Of a DNA stretch of 32,000 nt, positions 10,750 to 21,151 are shown in pieces (positions within the stretch are counted from its first letter, which is position 1; each line of letters starts with the position of its first letter). The notes beneath the pieces were generated by a model. It made no database searches. It saw only the letters and a list, made by a program, of their open reading frames with translations, and was not told the origin of the DNA. A program made the translations under genes and the position numbers. This DNA comes from Pseudodesulfovibrio mercurii (lineage in GTDB: Bacteria; Desulfobacterota; Desulfovibrionia; Desulfovibrionales; Desulfovibrionaceae): contig NC_016803.1 of the NCBI RefSeq assembly GCF_000189295.2, positions 2,880,001 through 2,912,000 on the forward strand, written 5' to 3'.

Positions 10750-11070
10750 ATGAAAAGCAAGCTCGTCCTGGCCGTGGCAACGGCCCTGATCACCGTCTTC
10801 GCCGTGTCCATGGCCTTTGCCATGGGCGGTGGCAACGCCCGCAAGGGCAAGTTCCTGTACCGCAAGAACTGCCGTTCCTGTCACGGCACCACCGCCAGCG
10901 ACATGAGCCCGGCGGACAAGACCCAGGCCGAATGGACGGCCCTGTTCTCCGACACGGGCAAGATCAAGTGCAGCCCGGACTGGACCGTCAACGAAAAGGA
11001 CCTGAACGACATCTTCACCTACCTGCACGACTACGCCAAGGACTCCCCGTCCCCGGCCAAGTGCAGCTAG
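10750..11070 (+). CDS. Periplasmic monohaem c-type cytochrome
   Basis: 106 aa from ATG 10750, with RBS GGAGGGA at 10741-10747. Signal peptide MKSKLVLAVATALITVFAVSMAFA and a single CRSCH haem-binding motif. Confidence 0.8.
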   Translation: MKSKLVLAVATALITVFAVSMAFAMGGGNARKGKFLYRKNCRSCHGTTASDMSPADKTQAEWTALFSDTGKIKCSPDWTVNEKDLNDIFTYLHDYAKDSPSPAKCS

Positions 11071-11254: not shown

Positions 11255-13429
11255 ATGTCCCGTCGCGATTTCTTCCGGGCCTCCGGCCTGGTGGCGGCAG
11301 GGGCCTTGGGCGGCCCGGCCCTGCTCGGCGGCCTGAAGAAGGCCCATGCGGCATCGCCGGCCAAGCCCGCCTGGGATTCCAGGTTTTCGGCTTGCGACAT
11401 GTGTTTCAACAAGTGCGGGCTCATCGCCCGCGTCGAGGACGGGGTGGTCACGAAGCTCGATCCCAACCCCAAGTTCCTCAAGTCCCGAGGTATGCTCTGC
11501 GCGCGTGGCAACGCGGGCCTGGCCCAGGTCTACGACCCGGACCGCCTCAAGCACCCCCTGCTCAGGAAGGGCGCGCGCGGCGAAGGCAAGTGGCAGCGCA
11601 TCCCCTGGGACGAGGCCCTGGACATGGCCGCGGCCAGGATGGCCGAGGTCCGCGACAAGTATACCCCCTGCGGCCACCTGTTCACCGCGGGCACGGACCT
11701 GCACTCGCAGTTCGTGGGCCGGTTCGCCGAGGTCTACGGCTCGTTCAACGTGACCTCGCACGAATCCCTGTGCCTGGTCTCGGGCAGCCGCGCCTTCCTC
11801 GACACCTTCGGCGAGGTGCCCTTCGCGGACGTGCTCAATTCCAAGTACATCCTGATGGTCGGGGCCAACCGCTTCGAGGCGCTGGTCACCCCGGACTCCA
11901 TCGATCTGATGACCGCCATTCGCGAGAACGGCTGCAAGCTGGTCACGCTCGATCCGCGCTACACCAAGACCGCGGCCCTGTCCCACGAGTGGTATCCGGT
12001 CAGGCCGGGCACGGACATGGCCTTCATGCTCGCGCTGGCCCACGTGATCATCAACGAGAAGCTCTACGATCCCGCGTGGATCGCGGAGAAGACCTACGGC
12101 ATGGAGCAGCTCACGGCCCACGTGCAGCAGTACACGCCCGGCTTCGCGGCCGAGCAGTGCGGCATCCCGGCCGAGGCCATCACCCGCATGGCCCGCGAGC
12201 TGGCCGCGGCCGCCCCGGCCTCCATGGTCTACCCCGGCCGCCGCACCTCGGACTACGAGGACTCCACCCAGATCCGGCGCAGCTTCGCCATCGTCAACGG
12301 GCTGCTCGGCAACTGGGACAGGCCCGGCGGACTGCTGGCCGCGCGCCAGGTGGGCCTCAAGGGCGTGTCCTATGACGCCCCGTGGTACGACGAGAACAAG
12401 GAGGACCGCATCGACGCGGGCAAGGTGCCCATGATGTTCGAGCACGAGGGGTCCTTCCTGGTCACCCGCGACTCGGTCCTGGCCGACGATCCATATCCCA
12501 TCCGGGGCTGGTTCATCTACAAGACCAACCCCATGGGCACGGCCCCCAACCGGAAGAAGACCATCGAGATGATGAACAAGATGGACTTCGTCACCGTGGT
12601 GGACATCGCCATGTCCGACACGGCCTGGATGGCCGACCTGGTCCTGCCGTCCCAGTCCTACCTGGAGCGCGAGGACCCGTGTTCGGGCCTTCAGGGCTCA
12701 GTGGCCTGCGCCTGCGTCATCAAGCGCGACCCGGTCATCGCCCCCATGTACGAGTCCCGGTCCCTGTTCGACATCATGAAGGGCATCGCGGGCCGCCTGG
12801 AGCTGGGCGAGTACTTCGACTTCACCATCGACGAGTACCGCCGGCAGCAGACCCGCGAGATTCCCGAGGCGCTCGGCGTCATGGACCGCGACGGCGTGTA
12901 CTACAACCCGTCCAAGGTCTACGGCATCTACGACGGGCGCATCTACAAGACCCTGTCCAAGAAGGTCGAGCTGTACAACCAGCGCTACGAGCAGATGGGC
13001 ATCGACCCGCTGCCCAACTACACGCCCCCGGCCGGGCCGCCCGAGAACCGCTTCCGCATGGTCCTCGGCCGCAACGCCATGATCACCCAGACCTCCACGG
13101 CCAACAACGCGCTGCTGCACGAGTTCCTGCCCACCAACACCCTGTGGCTGAACACCGAGGCCGCCGGGAAGCTGGGCATCGGCGACGGCGACCTGGTCGA
13201 GGTCTCAAGCCCCGTGGGCAGCCAGGAGCTCAAGGCCGAGGTCACGGACAAGATCCGCCCGGACACCGTGTACATGCTCTCGGGGTACAACACCCTGTCC
13301 ACCATGCAGCATCTGTCCCACGGCAACGGGGCGTCCATCAACGATCTGCTGGACGACGACTACGACGCCGTCACCGGCAACGCGTCCATGCACACGACCT
13401 TTGTCACCGTAACAAGGAAGGTGGCGTAA
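11255..13429 (+). CDS. Tat-exported molybdopterin (Mo/W-bisPGD) oxidoreductase catalytic subunit, PhsA/PsrA-like (thiosulfate/polysulfide reductase family)
   Basis: 724 aa from ATG 11255. Twin-arginine signal MSRRDFFRASG...AHA. N-terminal 4Fe-4S motif CDMCFNKCG...C. Candidate Cys Mo-ligand in SHESLCLVSG. The size fits the Psr/Phs clade. Confidence 0.85.
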   Translation: MSRRDFFRASGLVAAGALGGPALLGGLKKAHAASPAKPAWDSRFSACDMCFNKCGLIARVEDGVVTKLDPNPKFLKSRGMLCARGNAGLAQVYDPDRLKHPLLRKGARGEGKWQRIPWDEALDMAAARMAEVRDKYTPCGHLFTAGTDLHSQFVGRFAEVYGSFNVTSHESLCLVSGSRAFLDTFGEVPFADVLNSKYILMVGANRFEALVTPDSIDLMTAIRENGCKLVTLDPRYTKTAALSHEWYPVRPGTDMAFMLALAHVIINEKLYDPAWIAEKTYGMEQLTAHVQQYTPGFAAEQCGIPAEAITRMARELAAAAPASMVYPGRRTSDYEDSTQIRRSFAIVNGLLGNWDRPGGLLAARQVGLKGVSYDAPWYDENKEDRIDAGKVPMMFEHEGSFLVTRDSVLADDPYPIRGWFIYKTNPMGTAPNRKKTIEMMNKMDFVTVVDIAMSDTAWMADLVLPSQSYLEREDPCSGLQGSVACACVIKRDPVIAPMYESRSLFDIMKGIAGRLELGEYFDFTIDEYRRQQTREIPEALGVMDRDGVYYNPSKVYGIYDGRIYKTLSKKVELYNQRYEQMGIDPLPNYTPPAGPPENRFRMVLGRNAMITQTSTANNALLHEFLPTNTLWLNTEAAGKLGIGDGDLVEVSSPVGSQELKAEVTDKIRPDTVYMLSGYNTLSTMQHLSHGNGASINDLLDDDYDAVTGNASMHTTFVTVTRKVA

Positions 13430-14178
13430 TGGCACAGCAACTCGCCATGGTCATCGATGCGGCCAAGTGCATCGACTGCAAGGGGTGCGTGGCCGCCTGC
13501 AAGGTGGCCAACAACGTGCCCGAGGGCCAGTTCCGCAATTGGATCAAGCACGCCGACGTTCCGGTCATGCCCGGCATCGCCGGGGCCAAGGCCCGGTTCC
13601 AGCCGGGGGCGTGCATGCACTGCGAGAACCCCACCTGCGTGACCGCCTGTCCCACGGGCGCGACCTACAAGGACCCGGAGACCGGGGTGGTCGTCATCGA
13701 CGAGACCCTGTGCATCGGCTGCGGCAACTGCATTCCGGCCTGTCCCTACGACGCCCGGTTCCGCAACCCGGTCACGCGCAAGGCGGACAAGTGCAACTAC
13801 TGCCCCGAGCGGCGCGCCGCCGGGCTGCCCCCCGCCTGCGTGGACACCTGTCCGACCAAGGCGCGGGTCTTCGGCGACATCAACGATCCGACCAGCGCGG
13901 CGGGCATCCTGTACCGCAAGAACCAGGAGCGGCTGACCCGCGTGGCGGCCCGGACCGACACCAAGCCGAACATGTACTATATCGGCGACCCCGGCCCCGA
14001 GGCCTGGGGGCGCGAGGCCGTGGTCCCCGCGTCCATGGTGGCCATGAAGGAGTCCGCGCCGTTCATCAAGGGCATCGTGGCCCTGTCCGGCCTGGGCGTC
14101 CTGGCCATGCTCGGCCGCCAGCTCTTCGCCGGTTCCGGCGACCCGCACGACAGCCACAAGGAGGACAGCGATGCCTAG
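13429..14178 (+). CDS. 4Fe-4S ferredoxin-type electron-transfer subunit with a C-terminal TM anchor (FdnH/HybA-like architecture)
   Basis: 249 aa. TAATG stop/start overlap with the catalytic subunit. Four Cys clusters (CIDCKGCVAAC, CMHCENPTCVTACP, CIGCGNCIPACP, CNYC...CVDTCP). Hydrophobic helix FIKGIVALSGLGVLAMLG near the C-terminus. Confidence 0.85.
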   Translation: MAQQLAMVIDAAKCIDCKGCVAACKVANNVPEGQFRNWIKHADVPVMPGIAGAKARFQPGACMHCENPTCVTACPTGATYKDPETGVVVIDETLCIGCGNCIPACPYDARFRNPVTRKADKCNYCPERRAAGLPPACVDTCPTKARVFGDINDPTSAAGILYRKNQERLTRVAARTDTKPNMYYIGDPGPEAWGREAVVPASMVAMKESAPFIKGIVALSGLGVLAMLGRQLFAGSGDPHDSHKEDSDA

Positions 14179-14902
14179 CCGGACCTACAAGCGGCACGAC
14201 CGCTCCGACATCTTCATCCACTGGTTCAACGCGGCCTGCTGGCTGCTGCTCCTGCTGACCGGCGTGGGGCTGATCCAGAACCCGGACGTGGACCCGTTCG
14301 GCTCGGGCTATCCGGCCTGGCTGCGCTCGGTGGTGGGCGGCGGGGGCAACCTGCTGGCCATCCACGAGTTCATCGGCCTGGCCTGGATCGCGGGCTTCGT
14401 CCTCTACCTGCTGGTCAACTTCAGGGGGGCCCGCTTCTTCCTGGCCGAGGTCTTCGCGGTCAGCCCGGCCCGTGACATGGGCTGGATGCTCAAGAAGATG
14501 GTCCTCATGACCCTGGGGCCCAAGGCTCTGAAGGCCGTGGGCGTCAGCCCGGACCTGCCGGACCAGGGGTACTACAACATGGGCCAGAAGGCCTTTGCCC
14601 AGGCCTCGGTGGTCGGCGGCGTCGTCATTGCCGCGACCGGCGTGATCATGTACCTGTCCGACCGCACCTTCGGGGCCGAGTCCACGGGCATGATCGGCTG
14701 GGCCGTGGCCCTGCACTTCATCAGTGTGGGGCTGGTCTTCGCGGGGCTGCTGGTGCACGTCTACATGGCGGCGGTGTCGCCCGAGGAGCGCCCCGGCTTC
14801 AAGTCCATGTTCACCGGCGTGGTCCCCGGCGACTACGCCCGGCATCACCACCGGCTTTGGTGGGAAAAGGTCAGAACCGAGCCCGAGCAGGGTTCGGAAT
14901 AG
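14171..14902 (+). CDS. Membrane b-type cytochrome subunit (FdnI/PhsC, Ni/Fe-hydrogenase cytochrome b family)
   Basis: 243 aa. 8-nt overlap (ATGCCTAG) with the FeS subunit and RBS AAGGAGGA. Several TM helices with conserved His (IFIHWFNAACW, AIHEFIGL, ALHFISVG...LLVHVYM). Confidence 0.8.
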   Translation: MPSRTYKRHDRSDIFIHWFNAACWLLLLLTGVGLIQNPDVDPFGSGYPAWLRSVVGGGGNLLAIHEFIGLAWIAGFVLYLLVNFRGARFFLAEVFAVSPARDMGWMLKKMVLMTLGPKALKAVGVSPDLPDQGYYNMGQKAFAQASVVGGVVIAATGVIMYLSDRTFGAESTGMIGWAVALHFISVGLVFAGLLVHVYMAAVSPEERPGFKSMFTGVVPGDYARHHHRLWWEKVRTEPEQGSE

Positions 14903-14967: not shown

Positions 14968-16059
14968 ATGCACAGGAAGTTGATTGCCGCGGCCATGCTG
15001 CTGGCGTTCGTCGTGACGGCCCTGGCCGTCCCGGCCATGGCCCAGGAGAAGCCGAAGTTCAAGCAGTTCCACTCCATCGTGGACTACAAGTTCGTGGCCC
15101 AGTATGCGAAGATGCCGCAGCCCAAGGGCGTCATGATCATCGACTCGCGGCCCTACAAGCCCAAGTACGTGGACGGCTACATCCCCACGGCCGTGTCCAT
15201 CCCGGCCAGCCAGTTCGACAAGATGACCGACAAGCTGCCCAAGGACAAGGGCGAGCTGCTCGTCTTCTACTGCGGCGGCCTGGACTGTCCCCTGTCCCAC
15301 AAGTCCGCCTTCGCGGCCGAGGCCCTGGGCTACACCAACGTCAAGGTCTACGCCGCCGGGTTCCCGGACTGGAAGAAGCACGCCCCGTATTCCTCCATCG
15401 GCCTGGAAAACCTCGCCGCGCGGATCAATGAGGGCGGCAACTACCTGCTCGTGGACGCGCGGCCCTACAAGAAGTTCCTGGAAGGGGCCATCCCGTCCGC
15501 CATCGGCATCCCCGAGCGCGACTTCGCGGCCAAGCGCGGCCTGCTGCCCGCCGACAAGGTCAACACCACGCTGATCTACTACTGCGGCGGCTACGCCTGC
15601 GCCCTGTCCCACAAGTCCGCGGTCATGGCCCGTTCGCTGGGCTACAAGAACGTGCTCGTGGCCGAGGCCGGCTACCCCGGCTGGAAGGAGATGTTCGGGG
15701 CCACGGACAGCGCCGTGGTCGCGGGCGAGGCCGAGGGCGCGGTGGACACCGAGTGGTTCCTGAAGACCATCAAGGAGAACCCGTCCGCCATCCTGCTCAT
15801 CGACGTGCGCGATCCCGAGGAGTATGCGGCCGGTCACTTCCCGTCCGCCATCAACATGCCCGTGGACATGGTCGAGAAGCAGGCCAAGGAGATCCCCACG
15901 GACAAGCCCATCGTCTTCTCCTGCGCCTCGGGCGCGCGTGCGGGCGAGGCCTTCTACCTGTTCAAGGATCTGCGTCCGGACGTGGAAAAGGTCTACTACC
16001 TGGAGGCCACCAACTCGTTTGGCGGCGACAACAGCTACGAGGTCCATCCCAACAAGTAG
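14968..16059 (+). CDS. Periplasmic protein with three tandem rhodanese domains (sulfurtransferase-like)
   Basis: 363 aa with signal peptide ending AMA-QE. Active-site loops are YCGGLDCPLSHK (domain 1), YCGGYACALSHK (domain 2) and SCASGARAGEA (domain 3). Confidence 0.85.
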   Translation: MHRKLIAAAMLLAFVVTALAVPAMAQEKPKFKQFHSIVDYKFVAQYAKMPQPKGVMIIDSRPYKPKYVDGYIPTAVSIPASQFDKMTDKLPKDKGELLVFYCGGLDCPLSHKSAFAAEALGYTNVKVYAAGFPDWKKHAPYSSIGLENLAARINEGGNYLLVDARPYKKFLEGAIPSAIGIPERDFAAKRGLLPADKVNTTLIYYCGGYACALSHKSAVMARSLGYKNVLVAEAGYPGWKEMFGATDSAVVAGEAEGAVDTEWFLKTIKENPSAILLIDVRDPEEYAAGHFPSAINMPVDMVEKQAKEIPTDKPIVFSCASGARAGEAFYLFKDLRPDVEKVYYLEATNSFGGDNSYEVHPNK

Positions 16060-16117
16060 GGATCGGCCATGGACGGCCGGGGTCGGCCCCGGCGTAAACA
16101 CTGGGCGGGGAGCGCGT

Positions 16118-17125
16118 ATGTCGAGAAACATCACCTGTATGGCATGGCTGCTCCTCGCCTCGTGCGTCCTGGCCGCCGCGCCCGCCCTGGCCGACGAGAA
16201 CGAGGTCTGGTGGGCGTCGGCCCAGGTCGAGGCCGCGCGCGACGACTACCATCTGATCGACGATGACGGTCTGCGGAAACTGCTCGACGACAAGACGGAC
16301 ATGGTCCTGCTCGACGCCCGGGCGGACTACGAGTTCGAGGCCGGGCACATCCCCGGCGCGGTCAATCTGGAGTTCGACCTGGGCGACGACCTGAATCTCT
16401 CCCCGGAAAAGCGCCGGACCCTGGCCTCCCTCGTCGGGCCGGACAAGGACCGGCTGCTGGTCATCTACTGCCGGAGCTTCAGGTGACTGCGCAGCTCCAT
16501 TGCGGCGCGCTGGGCAGCGCGTCTCGGCTACACCCGGATCTACCGGTACCCGGCGGGCTTCCACGGCTGGCGGGAGAGGCACCCCGACCGGATTGAGGGC
16601 AAGCCCGACGCGGTCCATGTCCTGGCCGTGGGCGACGACTTCCCCACCTGCCGGGTGGCGGTGCTCAATGGCGACGAGGACCGGAACTACCTGGAACTGC
16701 CCGAGGGGGCCAGGTTCCTGCAACTGTCCGAGCTCAAGGCGAGCTTCGTGCTCATCCAGCTGTACAACACCCTGTGCAACGACTGCGTGGCCGAGACCAA
16801 GATGCTGACGCGCTTCTTCAAGAAGGTCGAGGCGGACCCGGAGCTGGCCGGGACGCTCAAGATCATCGGCATCGGGGTGTACGACTCCAACCTGGCCGTG
16901 GTCCGCTTCCGCAAGCATTACGACGTGGCCTACCCGCTGTTCTCGGACAAGAGCGGGCAGATCTTCGAGTGCCTGGGCCAGGCCGAGCTGCCCCTGGCCT
17001 ACCTGGTCCGGGCGCGGGGCGACGGCACGTGGCGCATCGAATTGATCAAGCGGGGATACTTCGAGCCGGACGAACAGTTCCTGGACGTGCTCCGCTCGGC
17101 GGTCAGGCTGCCGCCCAGGGACTAG
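16118..17125 (+). CDS. Predicted selenoprotein: secreted rhodanese (C-X4-U loop) fused to a TlpA/ResA-like thioredoxin-fold domain (CNDC). In-frame TGA at 16484-16486 read as Sec123.
   Basis: Track ORFs 15824..16486 and 16628..17125 share one frame and are separated only by that TGA; I translated 16487-16627 and found no other stop. The residues after the TGA (LRSSIAARWAARLGYTRIYRYPAGFHGWRER) complete the rhodanese fold. Signal peptide MSRNITCMAWLLLASCVLAAAPALA. If the TGA is a true stop or a sequencing error, this is a truncated gene or a pseudogene. Confidence 0.62.
16499..16528 (+). promoter_or_regulatory. Candidate bacterial SECIS hairpin downstream of UGA 16484
   Basis: Stem 16504-16511 pairs with 16516-16523 (8 bp including one G-U) and extends by 16500-16502/16525-16527 across one mismatch. 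The apical loop GGGC starts 25 nt after the UGA, which fits the reported bacterial SECIS geometry (G-containing loop about 16-37 nt downstream). Confidence 0.45.
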
Positions 17126-17736
17126 CCCTCGGCCACGACCGGGAGCAGGGCCAGGATCAGGTCCGCCCCGGCCGAAAAGACCGGGTCGGGATCGGCCTGG
17201 GCCAGGGCGTCGCGGAAGCGGCCCACCCACGGGAGCATGACCTCGCCCGCGAACCGGGCCGCCTGGTCGGCGAACTCCGGGTCCCCGGACCAGCCCTCGG
17301 CGCAGAGGTGGAAGAGAAATTCCAGCTCCAGAGTCAGGTGGTCGGGCGGCTCGTTGGAGGGCAGCGAGATTTCGAGCCCGGCCTCGGCCAGGCGGTCGCG
17401 CATGGCCAGGGCGCTCCTGCCCATGGTCCGCCCCTCGGGGCCGTGGCAGGACTCGTACAGCGGGGCCGGGACGCCGCCCGGTCCGGCGATGAACAGGCGG
17501 ACGTACTCCGCCTCCAGCGGCGAGAAGTTTTCGGCCTCGGCATAGGGGGCAAGCGCCTCGTCGAGGGCCGACAGGGGGTCGGCCGGGAAGCCGGGAATTT
17601 CCTGGACACGGTCGAGGAGTTCGGGCACTCCATGGGTGGCCAGTTCGGCCCACGCATGTTCGTCCGGCCCCCGAAATACGGAGACGCAGAGCTCCATCAC
17701 ATTGAGCAGAAAGAGTTTCGAGTGGGAAATGGACAT
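17122..17736 (-). CDS. TorD/DmsD-family redox-enzyme maturation chaperone
   Basis: 204 aa from ATG 17736 (ATG 17697 is an alternative). Family motifs EAEYVRLFIAGPGGVPAPLYES and PPDHLTLELEFLFHL. Convergent with the selenoprotein gene; the two stops share CTAG. Confidence 0.75.
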   Translation of the reverse strand: MSISHSKLFLLNVMELCVSVFRGPDEHAWAELATHGVPELLDRVQEIPGFPADPLSALDEALAPYAEAENFSPLEAEYVRLFIAGPGGVPAPLYESCHGPEGRTMGRSALAMRDRLAEAGLEISLPSNEPPDHLTLELEFLFHLCAEGWSGDPEFADQAARFAGEVMLPWVGRFRDALAQADPDPVFSAGADLILALLPVVAEG

Positions 17737-17786: not shown

Positions 17787-17836
17787 AAGAACACGGCAGG
17801 GCAATGGGAACATGGCCTGAGACAAAGGAGAACGAG

Positions 17837-18130
17837 ATGGACGACCACCTGAGCGCCGAGGAACAGGCCCTGAAGAAGAACGTGTTGTCACGCATGAAGC
17901 GCATCGAAGGACAGGTGCGCGGCATCCAGGGCATGATCGAATCCGGCAAGGAGTGCCAGGACATCCTGGTCCAGGTGCGGGCCGTGCGCTCGGCCCTCCA
18001 GTCGGCCAACAAGCTGATCCTCAAGCGCTACCTGCTCAGGTGTTACGCCGAGTCCGTGGAGAGCGGCCAGGACGCCAAGGATTCCCTGGAAAAGTTCATC
18101 TCCGTGGTCACCGGCTTCATCGAAGGCTGA
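17837..18130 (+). CDS. CsoR/RcnR-family (DUF156) repressor with Cys40-Tyr65-Cys69 at the sensing positions (CstR-like, no His ligand)
   Basis: 97 aa from ATG 17837, with RBS AAGGAG at 17825-17830. RIEGQVRGIQGMIESGKECQDIL...LKRYLLRC aligns without gaps to the C36/H61/C65 spacing of M. tuberculosis CsoR (25 and 29 residues). Confidence 0.85.
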   Translation: MDDHLSAEEQALKKNVLSRMKRIEGQVRGIQGMIESGKECQDILVQVRAVRSALQSANKLILKRYLLRCYAESVESGQDAKDSLEKFISVVTGFIEG

Positions 18131-18156: not shown

Positions 18157-18414
18157 ATGAAAAAACTGTTTCTAGCACTGGCATTCGCCCTGCTTTTCTG
18201 CCAGCCCGTGGCCGCGAAGACCAACTACAACGTCTGCTTCCATTCCCTGGACGCGGACGTGGACGGCCGCATGTCCAAGGGCGAGTTTCTGGTGGCCTTT
18301 TCCGACGGCGACACCTCGGTCTTCGACCAGGCCGACGCCAACCACGACGGCTCGGTGACCCACGAGGAGTGGGAGGCCTACAAGGAAGCCCAGGGCTTCG
18401 AGGACCACGAGTAG
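18157..18414 (+). CDS. Secreted small EF-hand calcium-binding protein
   Basis: 85 aa. Signal peptide MKKLFLALAFALLFCQPVAA. Two EF-hand loops, DADVDGRMSKGEF and DANHDGSVTHEEW. It starts 27 nt after the regulator gene. Confidence 0.72.
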   Translation: MKKLFLALAFALLFCQPVAAKTNYNVCFHSLDADVDGRMSKGEFLVAFSDGDTSVFDQADANHDGSVTHEEWEAYKEAQGFEDHE

Positions 18415-19824: not shown

Positions 19825-19923
19825 GGGGGGGATTTTCCCACACTCCATAGGGGGAAGTCAAAGGGTGGATTGCCCCTGGGGCGGGGCAATCCATCCATGC
19901 GTTCATGGAAAGGGGAAAATGCG

Positions 19924-20135
19924 GAGAGAGCCGCTTTACGGGCTGCGCCCGCTTGCTCCGGGTCGCGCCTTGCGTCGCGCCCAGGAACGCGCCTGCGGCG
20001 CGAGAGCCGGGAGGGAGCTGCGCTCCTCCCTCCGAGAGCCGTCGTGCGGGGCTGCGCCCCACACATTGCTCCATGCCCTCCCGGCGGGGTCCATTTTTTT
20101 GCTGGCCCAAAAAAATAGACGAAAAAAAGGGCCTT
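19924..20135 (+). repeat. Left arm of a modular inverted repeat (B-like module, 28-nt core, T7/A7 hairpin)
   Basis: The core GCGCCTGCGGCGCGAGAGCCGGGAGGGA at 19989-20016 is the exact reverse complement of 20989-21016. Flanking modules (GGAGCAAGCG..., T-run/A-run hairpin 20094-20115) recur in mirrored order in the right arm. Confidence 0.7.
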
Positions 20136-20378
20136 GGGGGGTAGCACGGCCGCCCGGGGAGGGGTCGCAAGAATCCGATCCGCTCGGGGCGGCTCCATCT
20201 GATCAAAGGTATAGAGCGTCTCCCGGAGCGGGATGGTCCCTTTTGGGGGAGACCGCGCTTCGGCGAGACTGGAGCCGCCACCCCTTCGCGGTCGGCTTCT
20301 ACGCGCCCCCTCCAGGGCTGTGACGGTGCGGGGAAGAGGTGCGGGGGGACGCGGCGGGGCGTGCTGGGGTGCGGGACA

Positions 20379-20423
20379 GAGAGCCGCTGTCGGGTGCCGG
20401 GGGCACCCGAATCGCTCCAGGGG
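20379..20423 (+). repeat. Family-B short hairpin repeat, copy B2
   Basis: GAGAGCCGCTGTCGGGTGCCGGGGGCACCCGAATCGCTCCAGGG, with internal stem CGGGTGCC/GGCACCCG. Confidence 0.75.
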
Positions 20424-20864
20424 GTGCGAGTTGGGGGAGTGTGGGCGGGGATGAGGGTTGAAAGTGGGAGTTTGCGTTGGAAGAGCCATGAAAGGGGGAT
20501 GGGATGCGGTGAGCTTTTCTACTTCTCCCTCGACGCGTTTCACCTGAGTTCCAGTGTTGGTTTTTCAGGACCGCCGCCAAGGTGATTCGCCACAATCCCA
20601 CAGTGCAAGCGCAGCCATTCTCCCGCATTGCCACACCCTTGTCGCGCCAGCGCGGCCAACCTTCCCGCACCCCACCTCTTCGTACCCGGCCATTGGCGTT
20701 GGCCCACTCCTCGCAGCCGAAGAGCGGTAATCGGCGGCGGACCCTAGAGCCCGTGTCCGGCGGCGGAAGCGCAGGTTTTATTGCGTCTGCGCAGCAGACT
20801 TTCCATCAAACCAGCGGGAGCCGCCTACGGGCTCTTGGGTCCGTCGGCGCGCGGCAGCACCGCA

Positions 20865-21080
20865 GCGCAGTTTTTGCTTCCTTTTTTCTGCGCCAGTAAA
20901 AAAGGAAGTCGCCGTAAAGGCGAAACACGATGTAGGGATGACACCCCAAAGTCTGGACGCGGATGCGCGGACAAATTCAAGGAGTTACTCCCTCCCGGCT
21001 CTCGCGCCGCAGGCGCATGCTTTGGAGCAAGCGCCGCAGACGCGCCGCTCTTATGCGTCGCGGCCGCCCGCCGCACCCCC
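20865..21080 (-). repeat. Right arm of the modular inverted repeat
   Basis: Contains hairpin CTTCCTTTTTT (20877-20887) / AAAAAAGGAAG (20898-20908), the 28-nt core at 20989-21016, and GGAGCAAGCG...GCCGCTCT. Confidence 0.7.
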
Positions 21081-21151
21081 AAAAAGGTGCGGCGGTCCAT
21101 CCTGGGGGATGTCCGCCGCACCGGGGGTTGGGGAGCTTGTACTGTCTCTGG

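Follow-up and report, generated by a model that had tools for sequence, protein, structure and literature searches.

We analyzed a stretch of 32,000 nucleotides from the genome of Pseudodesulfovibrio mercurii (NC_016803.1, positions 2,880,001 to 2,912,000 of the forward strand; hereafter the window, in which all positions below are counted) and describe here a gene that probably encodes a secreted selenoprotein in which a rhodanese domain is fused to a thioredoxin-fold domain. It is the last forward gene of a cluster that also encodes a cytochrome c, a molybdenum enzyme with its iron-sulfur and cytochrome b subunits, and a second secreted rhodanese. From an ATG at 16118, located eight bases past a GGGGAG Shine-Dalgarno sequence, the frame runs on the plus strand for 335 codons to a TAG at 17123-17125, with a single in-frame TGA at 16484-16486, which is codon 123. 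The translation opens with MSRNITCMAWLLLASCVLAAAPALA followed by DENE, reads MSRNITCMAWLLLASCVLAAAPALADENE...LLVIYCRSFR up to the TGA, and continues beyond it as LRSSIAARWAARLGYTRIYRYPAGFHGWRER... (LRSSIAARWAARLGYTRIYRYPAGFHGWRERHPDRIEGKPDAVHVLAVGDDFPTCR...), open until the TAG. A list of open reading frames divides this stretch into two entries, 15824..16486 and 16628..17125. As a sequence-only reading of the window had stated, the two entries share one frame, a single TGA stands between them, and the 141 nucleotides (nt) from 16487 to 16627, whose in-frame peptides include IYRYPAGFHGWR and HPDRIEGKPDAVHVLAVGDDFPTCR, hold no further stop. That reading had proposed that the TGA encodes selenocysteine (Sec). 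We agree, and put the probability that 16118-17125 is one gene with Sec at position 123 at about 0.85-0.9; a secreted, two-domain mature product of about 310 residues is strongly supported. The features of the locus are collected in the table.

Features at and around the proposed selenoprotein gene (positions within the window)
Feature	Position	Strand	Basis and remarks
Small mono-haem cytochrome c of the periplasm (CRSCH); opens the cluster	10750..11070	+	Pfam Cytochrome_CBB3; conserved synteny
Molybdopterin oxidoreductase catalytic subunit, PhsA/PsrA-like, exported by the twin-arginine pathway (TAT)	11255..13429	+	Pfam Molybdopterin, Molydop_binding, Molybdop_Fe4S4; RRDFF twin-arginine motif
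4Fe-4S subunit, PhsB/PsrB-like	13429..14178	+	CIDCKGCVAAC-type cluster motifs; Fer4 families in the L022 and L023 orthologues
Membrane cytochrome b subunit, FdnI/PhsC-like	14171..14902	+	Ni_hydr_CYTB 70.4 bits; NCBIfam formate dehydrogenase gamma 88 bits, below cut-off
Secreted triple-rhodanese protein	14968..16059	+	Pfam Rhodanese x3; domains 1 and 2 with C-X4-C loops, domain 3 with classical CASGAR
Proposed selenoprotein gene, complete (signal peptide, rhodanese domain, linker, ResA/CcmG-like redoxin domain)	16118..17125	+	Reading frame; full-length Cys homologues; orthologous loci
Predicted Sec-type signal peptide	16118..16192	+	MSRNITCMAWLLLASCVLAAAPALA, read by eye; cleavage after ALA probable
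Rhodanese homology domain, residues 52-153, with the UGA inside it	16271..16576	+	PF00581 63.7 bits against a cut-off of 22.2; PDB matches 6mxv, 8w14, 1qxn
Cys118 codon TGC, at the canonical active-site position of rhodaneses; opens the C-X4-U loop	16469..16471	+	Aligns with the catalytic Cys of 6mxv
Proposed selenocysteine codon TGA, residue 123	16484..16486	+	TGA in 19/19 non-Cys loci, TGC in 5 Cys-form loci
SECIS-like hairpin	16504..16523	+	Stem GGCGCGCU / AGCGCGUC, 8 base pairs including one G.U pair; GGGC apical loop 16512-16515
Thioredoxin-fold redoxin domain, residues 171-291, ResA/CcmG/TlpA type	16628..16990	+	AhpC-TSA 28.2 bits (cut-off 26); Redoxin 20.4 bits
C220-N-D-C223 CxxC redox motif	16775..16786	+	Both Cys invariant in 32 aligned sequences; aligns with CEPC of ResA
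TorD/NarJ-type redox-enzyme maturation chaperone, encoded convergently to the selenoprotein gene	17122..17736	-	Nitrate_red_del 86.8 bits; adjoins the gene in nearly all loci
CsoR/CstR-family regulator	17804..18130	+	Trns_repr_metal 88.4 bits; synteny; start uncertain (17804 or 17837)

At the G+C content of the window (66%), both a stop-free stretch and a stable hairpin are to be expected, so that this one sequence proves little and the comparative evidence is decisive. Single-protein scans gave close relatives only (nine genome loci and four metagenome loci), and we compared the DNA of 25 related loci drawn from genomes, metagenome-assembled genomes (MAGs) and metagenomes. All 19 non-Cys orthologous loci carry TGA at the identical codon and none carries TAA or TAG; the 19 were drawn from Pseudodesulfovibrio genomes, MAGs and metagenomes (59-88% protein identity) and include one more distant single-domain form. 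In the Cys forms (L003, L007 and L022-L024) the codon is TGC. No orthologue has a different sense codon or a frameshift at this position, and in the compared loci the frame stays open and conserved before the TGA as well as after it. Selection on the protein is likewise continuous: among 16 Sec-form orthologues, the ratio of non-synonymous to synonymous polymorphism (pN/pS) is 0.415 for the 47 codons from the TGA to GTG 16628, compared with 0.407 in the 40 codons before this stretch and 0.434 in the 100 after it. One metagenomic orthologue (L020:1099-1464, on JGI contig 3300047674) has a garbled N-terminal part with an extra stop and apparent frameshifts, probably assembly errors; its TGA and downstream frame are intact.

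These data bear directly on two ways of explaining the TGA without recoding. A lone in-frame stop inside a domain resembles a nonsense mutation when it is seen in one genome, and it might reflect a sequencing or assembly error or a pseudogene. The same TGA recurs, however, in different species, in independent isolates as well as in MAGs and metagenome contigs, at identities of 59-88% and in more distant sequences, which rules out an assembly error, and selection is intact on both sides of it; we consider the chance of an error or a pseudogene negligible. The TGA could also be a genuine stop, producing a 122-residue truncated rhodanese followed by an independently started redoxin protein. Gene callers and the NCBI annotation split the locus in this way in many genomes, and an in-frame GTG or ATG is found downstream of the TGA in every orthologue. 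Yet the restart codon is not conserved: among the Sec-form orthologues the first possible one shifts from codon 11 to codon 48, and the only one in the window, GTG 16628, would discard 47 conserved residues that are under the same purifying selection as their flanks. The truncated product would also miss roughly the last 30 residues of the rhodanese domain, the stop would always be TGA and never TAA or TAG, and the Cys-form homologues are continuous single proteins. Two separate genes are in our view very improbable.

The homologues that carry a sense codon at this position point to the identity of the inserted residue. A database search with the read-through protein returned about 25 full-length matches of 317-356 residues, from Pseudodesulfovibrio, Desulfarculaceae, Desulfoferula mesophila and others, every one of which has Cys at the TGA position (YCRSFRCLRS); in the alignment this column is Cys in all 22 full-length database homologues. 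The same search returned about 40 fragments of 196-203 residues, labelled "redoxin" or "peroxiredoxin", which start a few residues past the TGA position at variable codons. The correspondence of Cys and Sec that had been proposed from the neighboring gene therefore extends to the family, with TGA or TGC in the orthologues and Cys in the full-length homologues, and these alignments lend strong support to the classical Sec/Cys signature. UGA is not reassigned in this genome, since it is the ordinary stop of six other genes in the window, where the stop codons of the 22 other genes are TAG (13), TGA (6) and TAA (3). The seven other genes of the cluster, from cytochrome c to TorD and with the regulator excluded, terminate with TAG or TAA. 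Taken together, the conserved TGA, the Cys homologues, the pN/pS values and the shifting restart codons rule out that the TGA is an assembly error, that the gene is a pseudogene or that two genes are present.

Because gene callers stop at UGA, public records show this gene as a "rhodanese-like protein" of 120-122 residues followed by a "redoxin domain protein" of about 200 residues, and every retrieved public record of a TGA-form gene is split. When the N-terminal domain was used as query, more than 100 clusters of 120-122-residue "rhodanese-like" proteins that terminate in ...YCRSFR were recovered, with named carriers including P. indicus, P. hydrargyri, P. cashew, P. sediminis, P. nedwellii, P. 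portus and Maridesulfovibrio salexigens. The two fragments of P. sediminis lie on adjacent locus tags (PSDVSF_25600 and PSDVSF_25610), and adjacent split gene calls are also visible on other orthologue contigs. The retrieved database protein clusters that end in [YF]C-X4, exactly four residues past the loop Cys, number 165. Of the 150 best-matching representatives in a library clustered at 50% identity, about 40 come to an end at profile position 119-121, immediately ahead of the Cys/Sec column. At least 165 public protein clusters, including those from named Pseudodesulfovibrio and Maridesulfovibrio genomes, would thus be miscalled fragments; with a single curated model they would be corrected, and sulfate reducers would gain larger selenoproteomes.

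Bacterial Sec codons are read with help from a selenocysteine insertion sequence (SECIS), for which the bSECISearch criteria place the apical loop 16-37 nt after the UGA, with a G in the first two loop positions. The sequence-only reading had reported a stable, SECIS-like hairpin beginning 25 nt after the UGA. Its position at 16504-16523 is correct; the stem, however, begins 17 nt past the UGA, and it is the apical loop that lies 25 nt past it. The claim of special stability did not survive. Any G+C-rich coding of the peptide IAARWAAR folds, so that stability alone is worthless as evidence.

Several results weigh against the SECIS interpretation, and with it against Sec insertion. The fold has a z-score of +0.97 relative to dinucleotide shuffles and is therefore not exceptionally stable, and synonymous recodings of its peptide, drawn with the codon usage of the window, fold into structures just as stable. 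In a 60-nt context the minimum free energy structure is a competing one and not the hairpin. Rfam gave nothing relevant across the window at the gathering threshold, nor around the site at E-values up to 10. The consensus stem has 7 base pairs and its covariation is thin, consisting of a G-C/G-U/A-U series at stem pair 26:35 and a single A-U cell at another pair, in sequences that are related. The hairpin of the Cys form L022 is equally good, and the Sec form represented by L013/L018 has a stem mismatch. In addition, selA, selB, selC (tRNA-Sec) and selD are all absent from the 32-kb window, including by a tRNA scan.

What does track the TGA forms is the geometry of the hairpin. We folded the RNA from position +12, since a ribosome paused at the UGA would cover the first dozen bases, and asked for at least seven uninterrupted pairs and a loop starting with G at 16-37 nt after the UGA. 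This geometry was present in 16 of 17 distinct Sec forms, compared with 1 of 5 Cys forms and 30% of random synonymous recodings. L019 (GGU loop) and L025 (GUG loop) attain it by a different sequence solution. Codon choice also departs from the background: 15 of 16 Sec forms encode the loop-closing Ala by GCA, which accounts for 1.5% of Ala codons in the genes of the window, and the two Ala codons of the 5' arm are mostly GCG in Sec forms and not the usual GCC. Among the Cys forms, L007 retains the rare GCA at the loop-closing position and L022 has a strong hairpin at the SECIS position; both may be relics of a Sec-to-Cys conversion. Geometry and codon choice together suggest selection at the RNA level consistent with a SECIS, which is supportive but not conclusive, the Sec-form sequences being phylogenetically non-independent. 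The hairpin probably assists the decoding of the UGA as Sec.

The ambiguity of the hairpin leaves room for read-through that does not involve selenium, in which near-cognate insertion of Trp or Cys, or low-level suppression, would yield a full-length product. One homologue fits this picture: P0114, a stand-alone protein of 163 residues, has Trp at the Sec/Cys position (YCRNYQWLRS). Here a UGA has either changed to UGG, or the source pipeline translated a TGA with a different code table, and in the latter case P0114 would lose its value as support. Apart from P0114, the position is strictly Cys in the homologues with a sense codon, which is the standard Sec/Cys signature. The TGA forms have moreover retained, at a distance that would suit a SECIS, a hairpin whose loop is rich in G and which a rare codon maintains, and TsoB, the closest curated family, is a recognized selenoprotein whose Sec residues occupy the corresponding positions of the loop. 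Desulfovibrionaceae are also known to use Sec, which argues against this explanation as well. To the same effect, a related Salidesulfovibrio is listed with 10 selenoprotein genes (PMC12013277). Read-through without Sec is in our estimate quite unlikely, if slightly less so than a genuine stop, and we retain Sec as the residue inserted at position 123.

Read through, the gene encodes a complete rhodanese domain. The Pfam match, computed with Cys placed at the TGA, spans residues 52-153, so that termination at codon 123 would cost the domain about 30 residues at its end, or the last third, and the in-frame continuation does supply the C-terminal part of the domain, as had been suggested. The active-site loop reads C118-R-S-F-R-U123-L-R-S. 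It is two residues longer than the classical CGG-GFRS loop of 6mxv and departs from the classical six-residue pattern C-x-x-G-x-R/T. Alignment places the TGA on the second Cys of the C-X4-C loops found in domains 1 and 2 of the neighboring triple rhodanese, as the sequence-only reading had it, and also in stand-alone homologues. Among distant full-length and stand-alone relatives, the canonical Cys can be replaced by Asp (YDRSLQCVRS, in P0095, P0097, P0098, P0099 and P0121), while the Cys equivalent to Sec is invariant. Since column 123 does not vary even where the equivalent of Cys118 is Asp, position 123 appears to be the conserved catalytic residue of the family, which is what a selenoprotein would lead one to expect. 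This loop conservation strongly supports a role of position 123 as the key catalytic residue, with Cys118 as its usual partner.

The C-terminal half had been described as a TlpA/ResA-like fold with a CNDC motif, and both the Pfam matches and a sequence match to ResA (E = 2.7e-8) agree with this. Foldseek searches with the AlphaFold model of P0001, a Cys homologue that is 66% identical (mean predicted local distance difference test score, pLDDT, 87.6; predicted template modeling score, pTM, 0.57), retrieved ResA, CcmG, DsbE and TlpA-like structures with target TM scores of 0.83-0.86. Assignment stops at this broad type, the domain scoring below the NCBIfam cut-offs for ResA (42.3 vs 170 bits) and DsbE (20.5 vs 123 bits). 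Besides the CxxC pair, C178 (16649-16651) and C285 (16970-16972) are nearly invariant and are both lost in the most divergent homologues, P0062 and P0063; their joint loss suggests a structural disulfide. Reductases of the ResA/CcmG/TlpA type act outside the cytoplasm and are normally kept reduced by CcdA or DsbD. An extracytoplasmic location is also predicted by the N-terminus, and the N-termini of the homologues are likewise hydrophobic and end in AxA. A lipoprotein signal (LASC, residues 13-16) was considered and rejected, as homologues carry L or F at position -1.

The genes around the selenoprotein gene form an operon of the PhsA-like kind, in line with the sulfur-reductase operon that had been proposed. 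The best NCBIfam match of the molybdenum subunit is PhsA (E = 6.4e-153, 510.5 bits), under the cut-off of 694, and we therefore call this catalytic subunit only PhsA/PsrA-like. We considered whether it belongs to the MOLY cluster, proposed for sulfur disproportionation (PMC12998232). Such membership is possible but doubtful, MOLY being described as lacking a membrane anchor whereas a cytochrome b is present here. The triple rhodanese directly upstream of the selenoprotein gene has two extended C-X4-C domains, YCGGLDCPLSHKS and YCGGYACALSHKS, and one classical domain, SCASGARAG, which brings the operon to three X4-spaced two-chalcogen loops in total.

The whole gene arrangement recurs in all Pseudodesulfovibrio loci that we compared, and the same arrangement is found with Cys forms in Desulfoferula mesophila (AP028679.1) and on other Desulfobacterota contigs. 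The closest relatives of the window are P. karagichevae 9FUS and 'D. caledoniensis' lm2024 (complete genome CP195092.1, a TGA form), with 85-88% identity for the selenoprotein. A shorter version occurs on a more distant contig of ENA ERZ4787356 (L025:8001-8600), where a single-domain C-X4-U rhodanese reads ...YCRSFR-TGA-LRSGIAASRAVGLGYTNIMHLPHGYFGWRDFAKE-stop and is devoid of a redoxin domain; it has a hairpin with a GUG loop 30 nt after the UGA and lies in the same operon of cytochrome c, molybdenum, FeS and cytochrome b subunits and TorD. In P. mercurii the regulator has two Cys and a Tyr rather than a His four residues before the second Cys (KRYLLRC), which gives it a CstR-like look; it may be a persulfide sensor that controls the cluster. 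This regulator and a small secreted EF-hand protein (18157-18414, plus strand) adjoin the operon in most Pseudodesulfovibrio loci. Further downstream, about 1.3 kb at 19860-21150 contain no convincing gene and are flanked by 41-nt inverted repeats (19977-20017 and 20988-21028, 88% complementary), with two shorter inverted pairs inside; this stretch could represent a small mobile element, or else be a non-coding region with structure.

What the protein might do can be sketched from its parts. It would act in the periplasm alongside the triple rhodanese and the complex formed by cytochrome c, the PhsA-like molybdenum enzyme, the FeS subunit and cytochrome b, with the sulfane sulfur of thiosulfate or polysulfide as its likely substrate. 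The Sec/Cys loop would accept this sulfur at Sec123 or Cys118 as a perselenosulfide or a persulfide. Attack on the adduct by the partner chalcogen would then release sulfide or hand the sulfur on, leaving an intraloop Se-S bond that the fused ResA-like CxxC could reduce. The ResA-like domain would in turn be re-reduced by a membrane system of the CcdA/DsbD type or by the respiratory complex. We offer this specific redox relay tentatively; an alternative role would be that of a Sud-like sulfur carrier feeding the molybdenum enzyme. Some points count against the relay. The functional model draws on domain identities, loop conservation and gene context only; the PhsA match, which is below its cut-off, does not fix the substrate of the molybdenum enzyme; no CcdA or DsbD gene was seen in the cluster; and the geometry between the two domains is uncertain in the P0001 model (pTM 0.57).

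Rhodanese-domain selenoproteins have been known since the mid-2000s, and TsoB is said to have been described by Haft and Tolstoy in 2025. A 2026 review lists five rhodanese selenoprotein forms: UxxS, UxxG, CxU (NF041203), a second UxxG, and TsoB (UxxxxU), a fusion of a U-X4-U rhodanese with a DsbD-like part (PMC13188914). Neither a C-X4-U loop nor a fusion to a redoxin is among these five forms (PMC13188914), and none of the selenoprotein-specific NCBIfam models (release June 2026) reaches its cut-off on our product. The sequence-only reading had not recognized the architecture as described; the combination of a C-X4-U loop and a redoxin fusion is indeed unlisted, but it does have a precedent in TsoB, whose NCBIfam model (seleno_TsoB, NF045694) matches residues 6-154 at model positions 5-152 of 572 with E = 3.7e-30, at 104.6 bits against a cut-off of 805.

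With forms 1-4 of the review, the protein shares a Sec in or beside the active-site loop and a distribution largely in Desulfobacterota and metagenomes. It differs from NF041203 (LYCAU type, C-x-U), on which it scores 31.5 bits against a cut-off of 115, in having a C-X4-U motif. The separation from form 1 (UxxS, Geobacter sulfurreducens WP_010941598.1) is by description only, as U-L-R-S formally fits 'UxxS', and an overlap is possible; no Geobacter protein was among the family matches, as judged by cluster names and the profile search.

Sud, the single-domain polysulfide-sulfur transferase that works with the polysulfide reductase PsrABC, is a sulfane-sulfur carrier and in this respect a model for the rhodaneses of the operon. 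Like Sud of Wolinella succinogenes (1QXN, E = 8.4e-6), our protein has a periplasmic rhodanese domain linked with a molybdoenzyme of the PhsA/PsrA type. Sud differs in having one catalytic Cys in a classical loop, with neither Sec, a second loop chalcogen nor a thioredoxin-fold domain. With ResA, CcmG and TlpA the protein shares the thioredoxin fold, the CxxC motif and the extracytoplasmic location, but those proteins are membrane-anchored, stand alone and serve cytochrome c maturation and other tasks, whereas here the domain is fused behind a rhodanese, has a CNDC motif and carries the extra Cys pair C178/C285.

Our boldest reading is that the rhodanese selenoproteins have a sixth form, widespread and undescribed, in this family, in which the residue at the Sec position, and not the canonical Cys, is the catalytic center, and in which an intraloop Se-S/S-S switch, served by a fused ResA-like CxxC, turns the rhodanese from a mere carrier of sulfur into a redox enzyme, a reductase of persulfide or thiosulfate in the periplasm. 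Taken as a whole, we regard this as doubtful, and more so than the relay by itself. If true, it would make the protein an obligatory part, overlooked so far, of a conserved molybdenum-enzyme pathway by which Desulfobacterota respire or disproportionate thiosulfate or polysulfide. The family itself shows a rhodanese whose conserved nucleophile lies five residues past the canonical Cys, with a second chalcogen as its partner and a connection to a reductase of the thioredoxin fold. As a fixed member of the operon across Desulfobacterota, the protein is a testable candidate for a role in the poorly understood periplasmic handling of thiosulfate, polysulfide and sulfur, and would link selenium supply with sulfur cycling.

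TsoB (WP_332113227.1) remains the closest of the known systems. In both, a secreted rhodanese of the same subfamily stands at the N-terminus, Sec occupies an X4-spaced two-chalcogen loop, and the rhodanese is fused to a component of extracytoplasmic thiol-disulfide reduction. A U-X4-U loop in the same subfamily, fused to a DsbD-like domain, supports the idea of a loop that is serviced by a thiol-disulfide pathway, and the two proteins together point to a class of redox-active "dichalcogenide" rhodaneses. The differences are equally clear: TsoB has two Sec (U-X4-U) where the present protein would have one (C-X4-U), and its partner is a DsbD-like membrane domain in a model of 572 positions where here it is a soluble, ResA/CcmG-like CxxC domain in a protein of 335 residues. 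TsoB is also named alongside the selenoproteins TsoA, TsoC, TsoX and TsoY, none of which is in the present cluster. Judged by its sequence relationships, the protein is an X4-spaced Cys/Sec rhodanese related to TsoB and distinct from it in Sec count, fusion partner and genomic context, and it is both unusually widespread and systematically misannotated.

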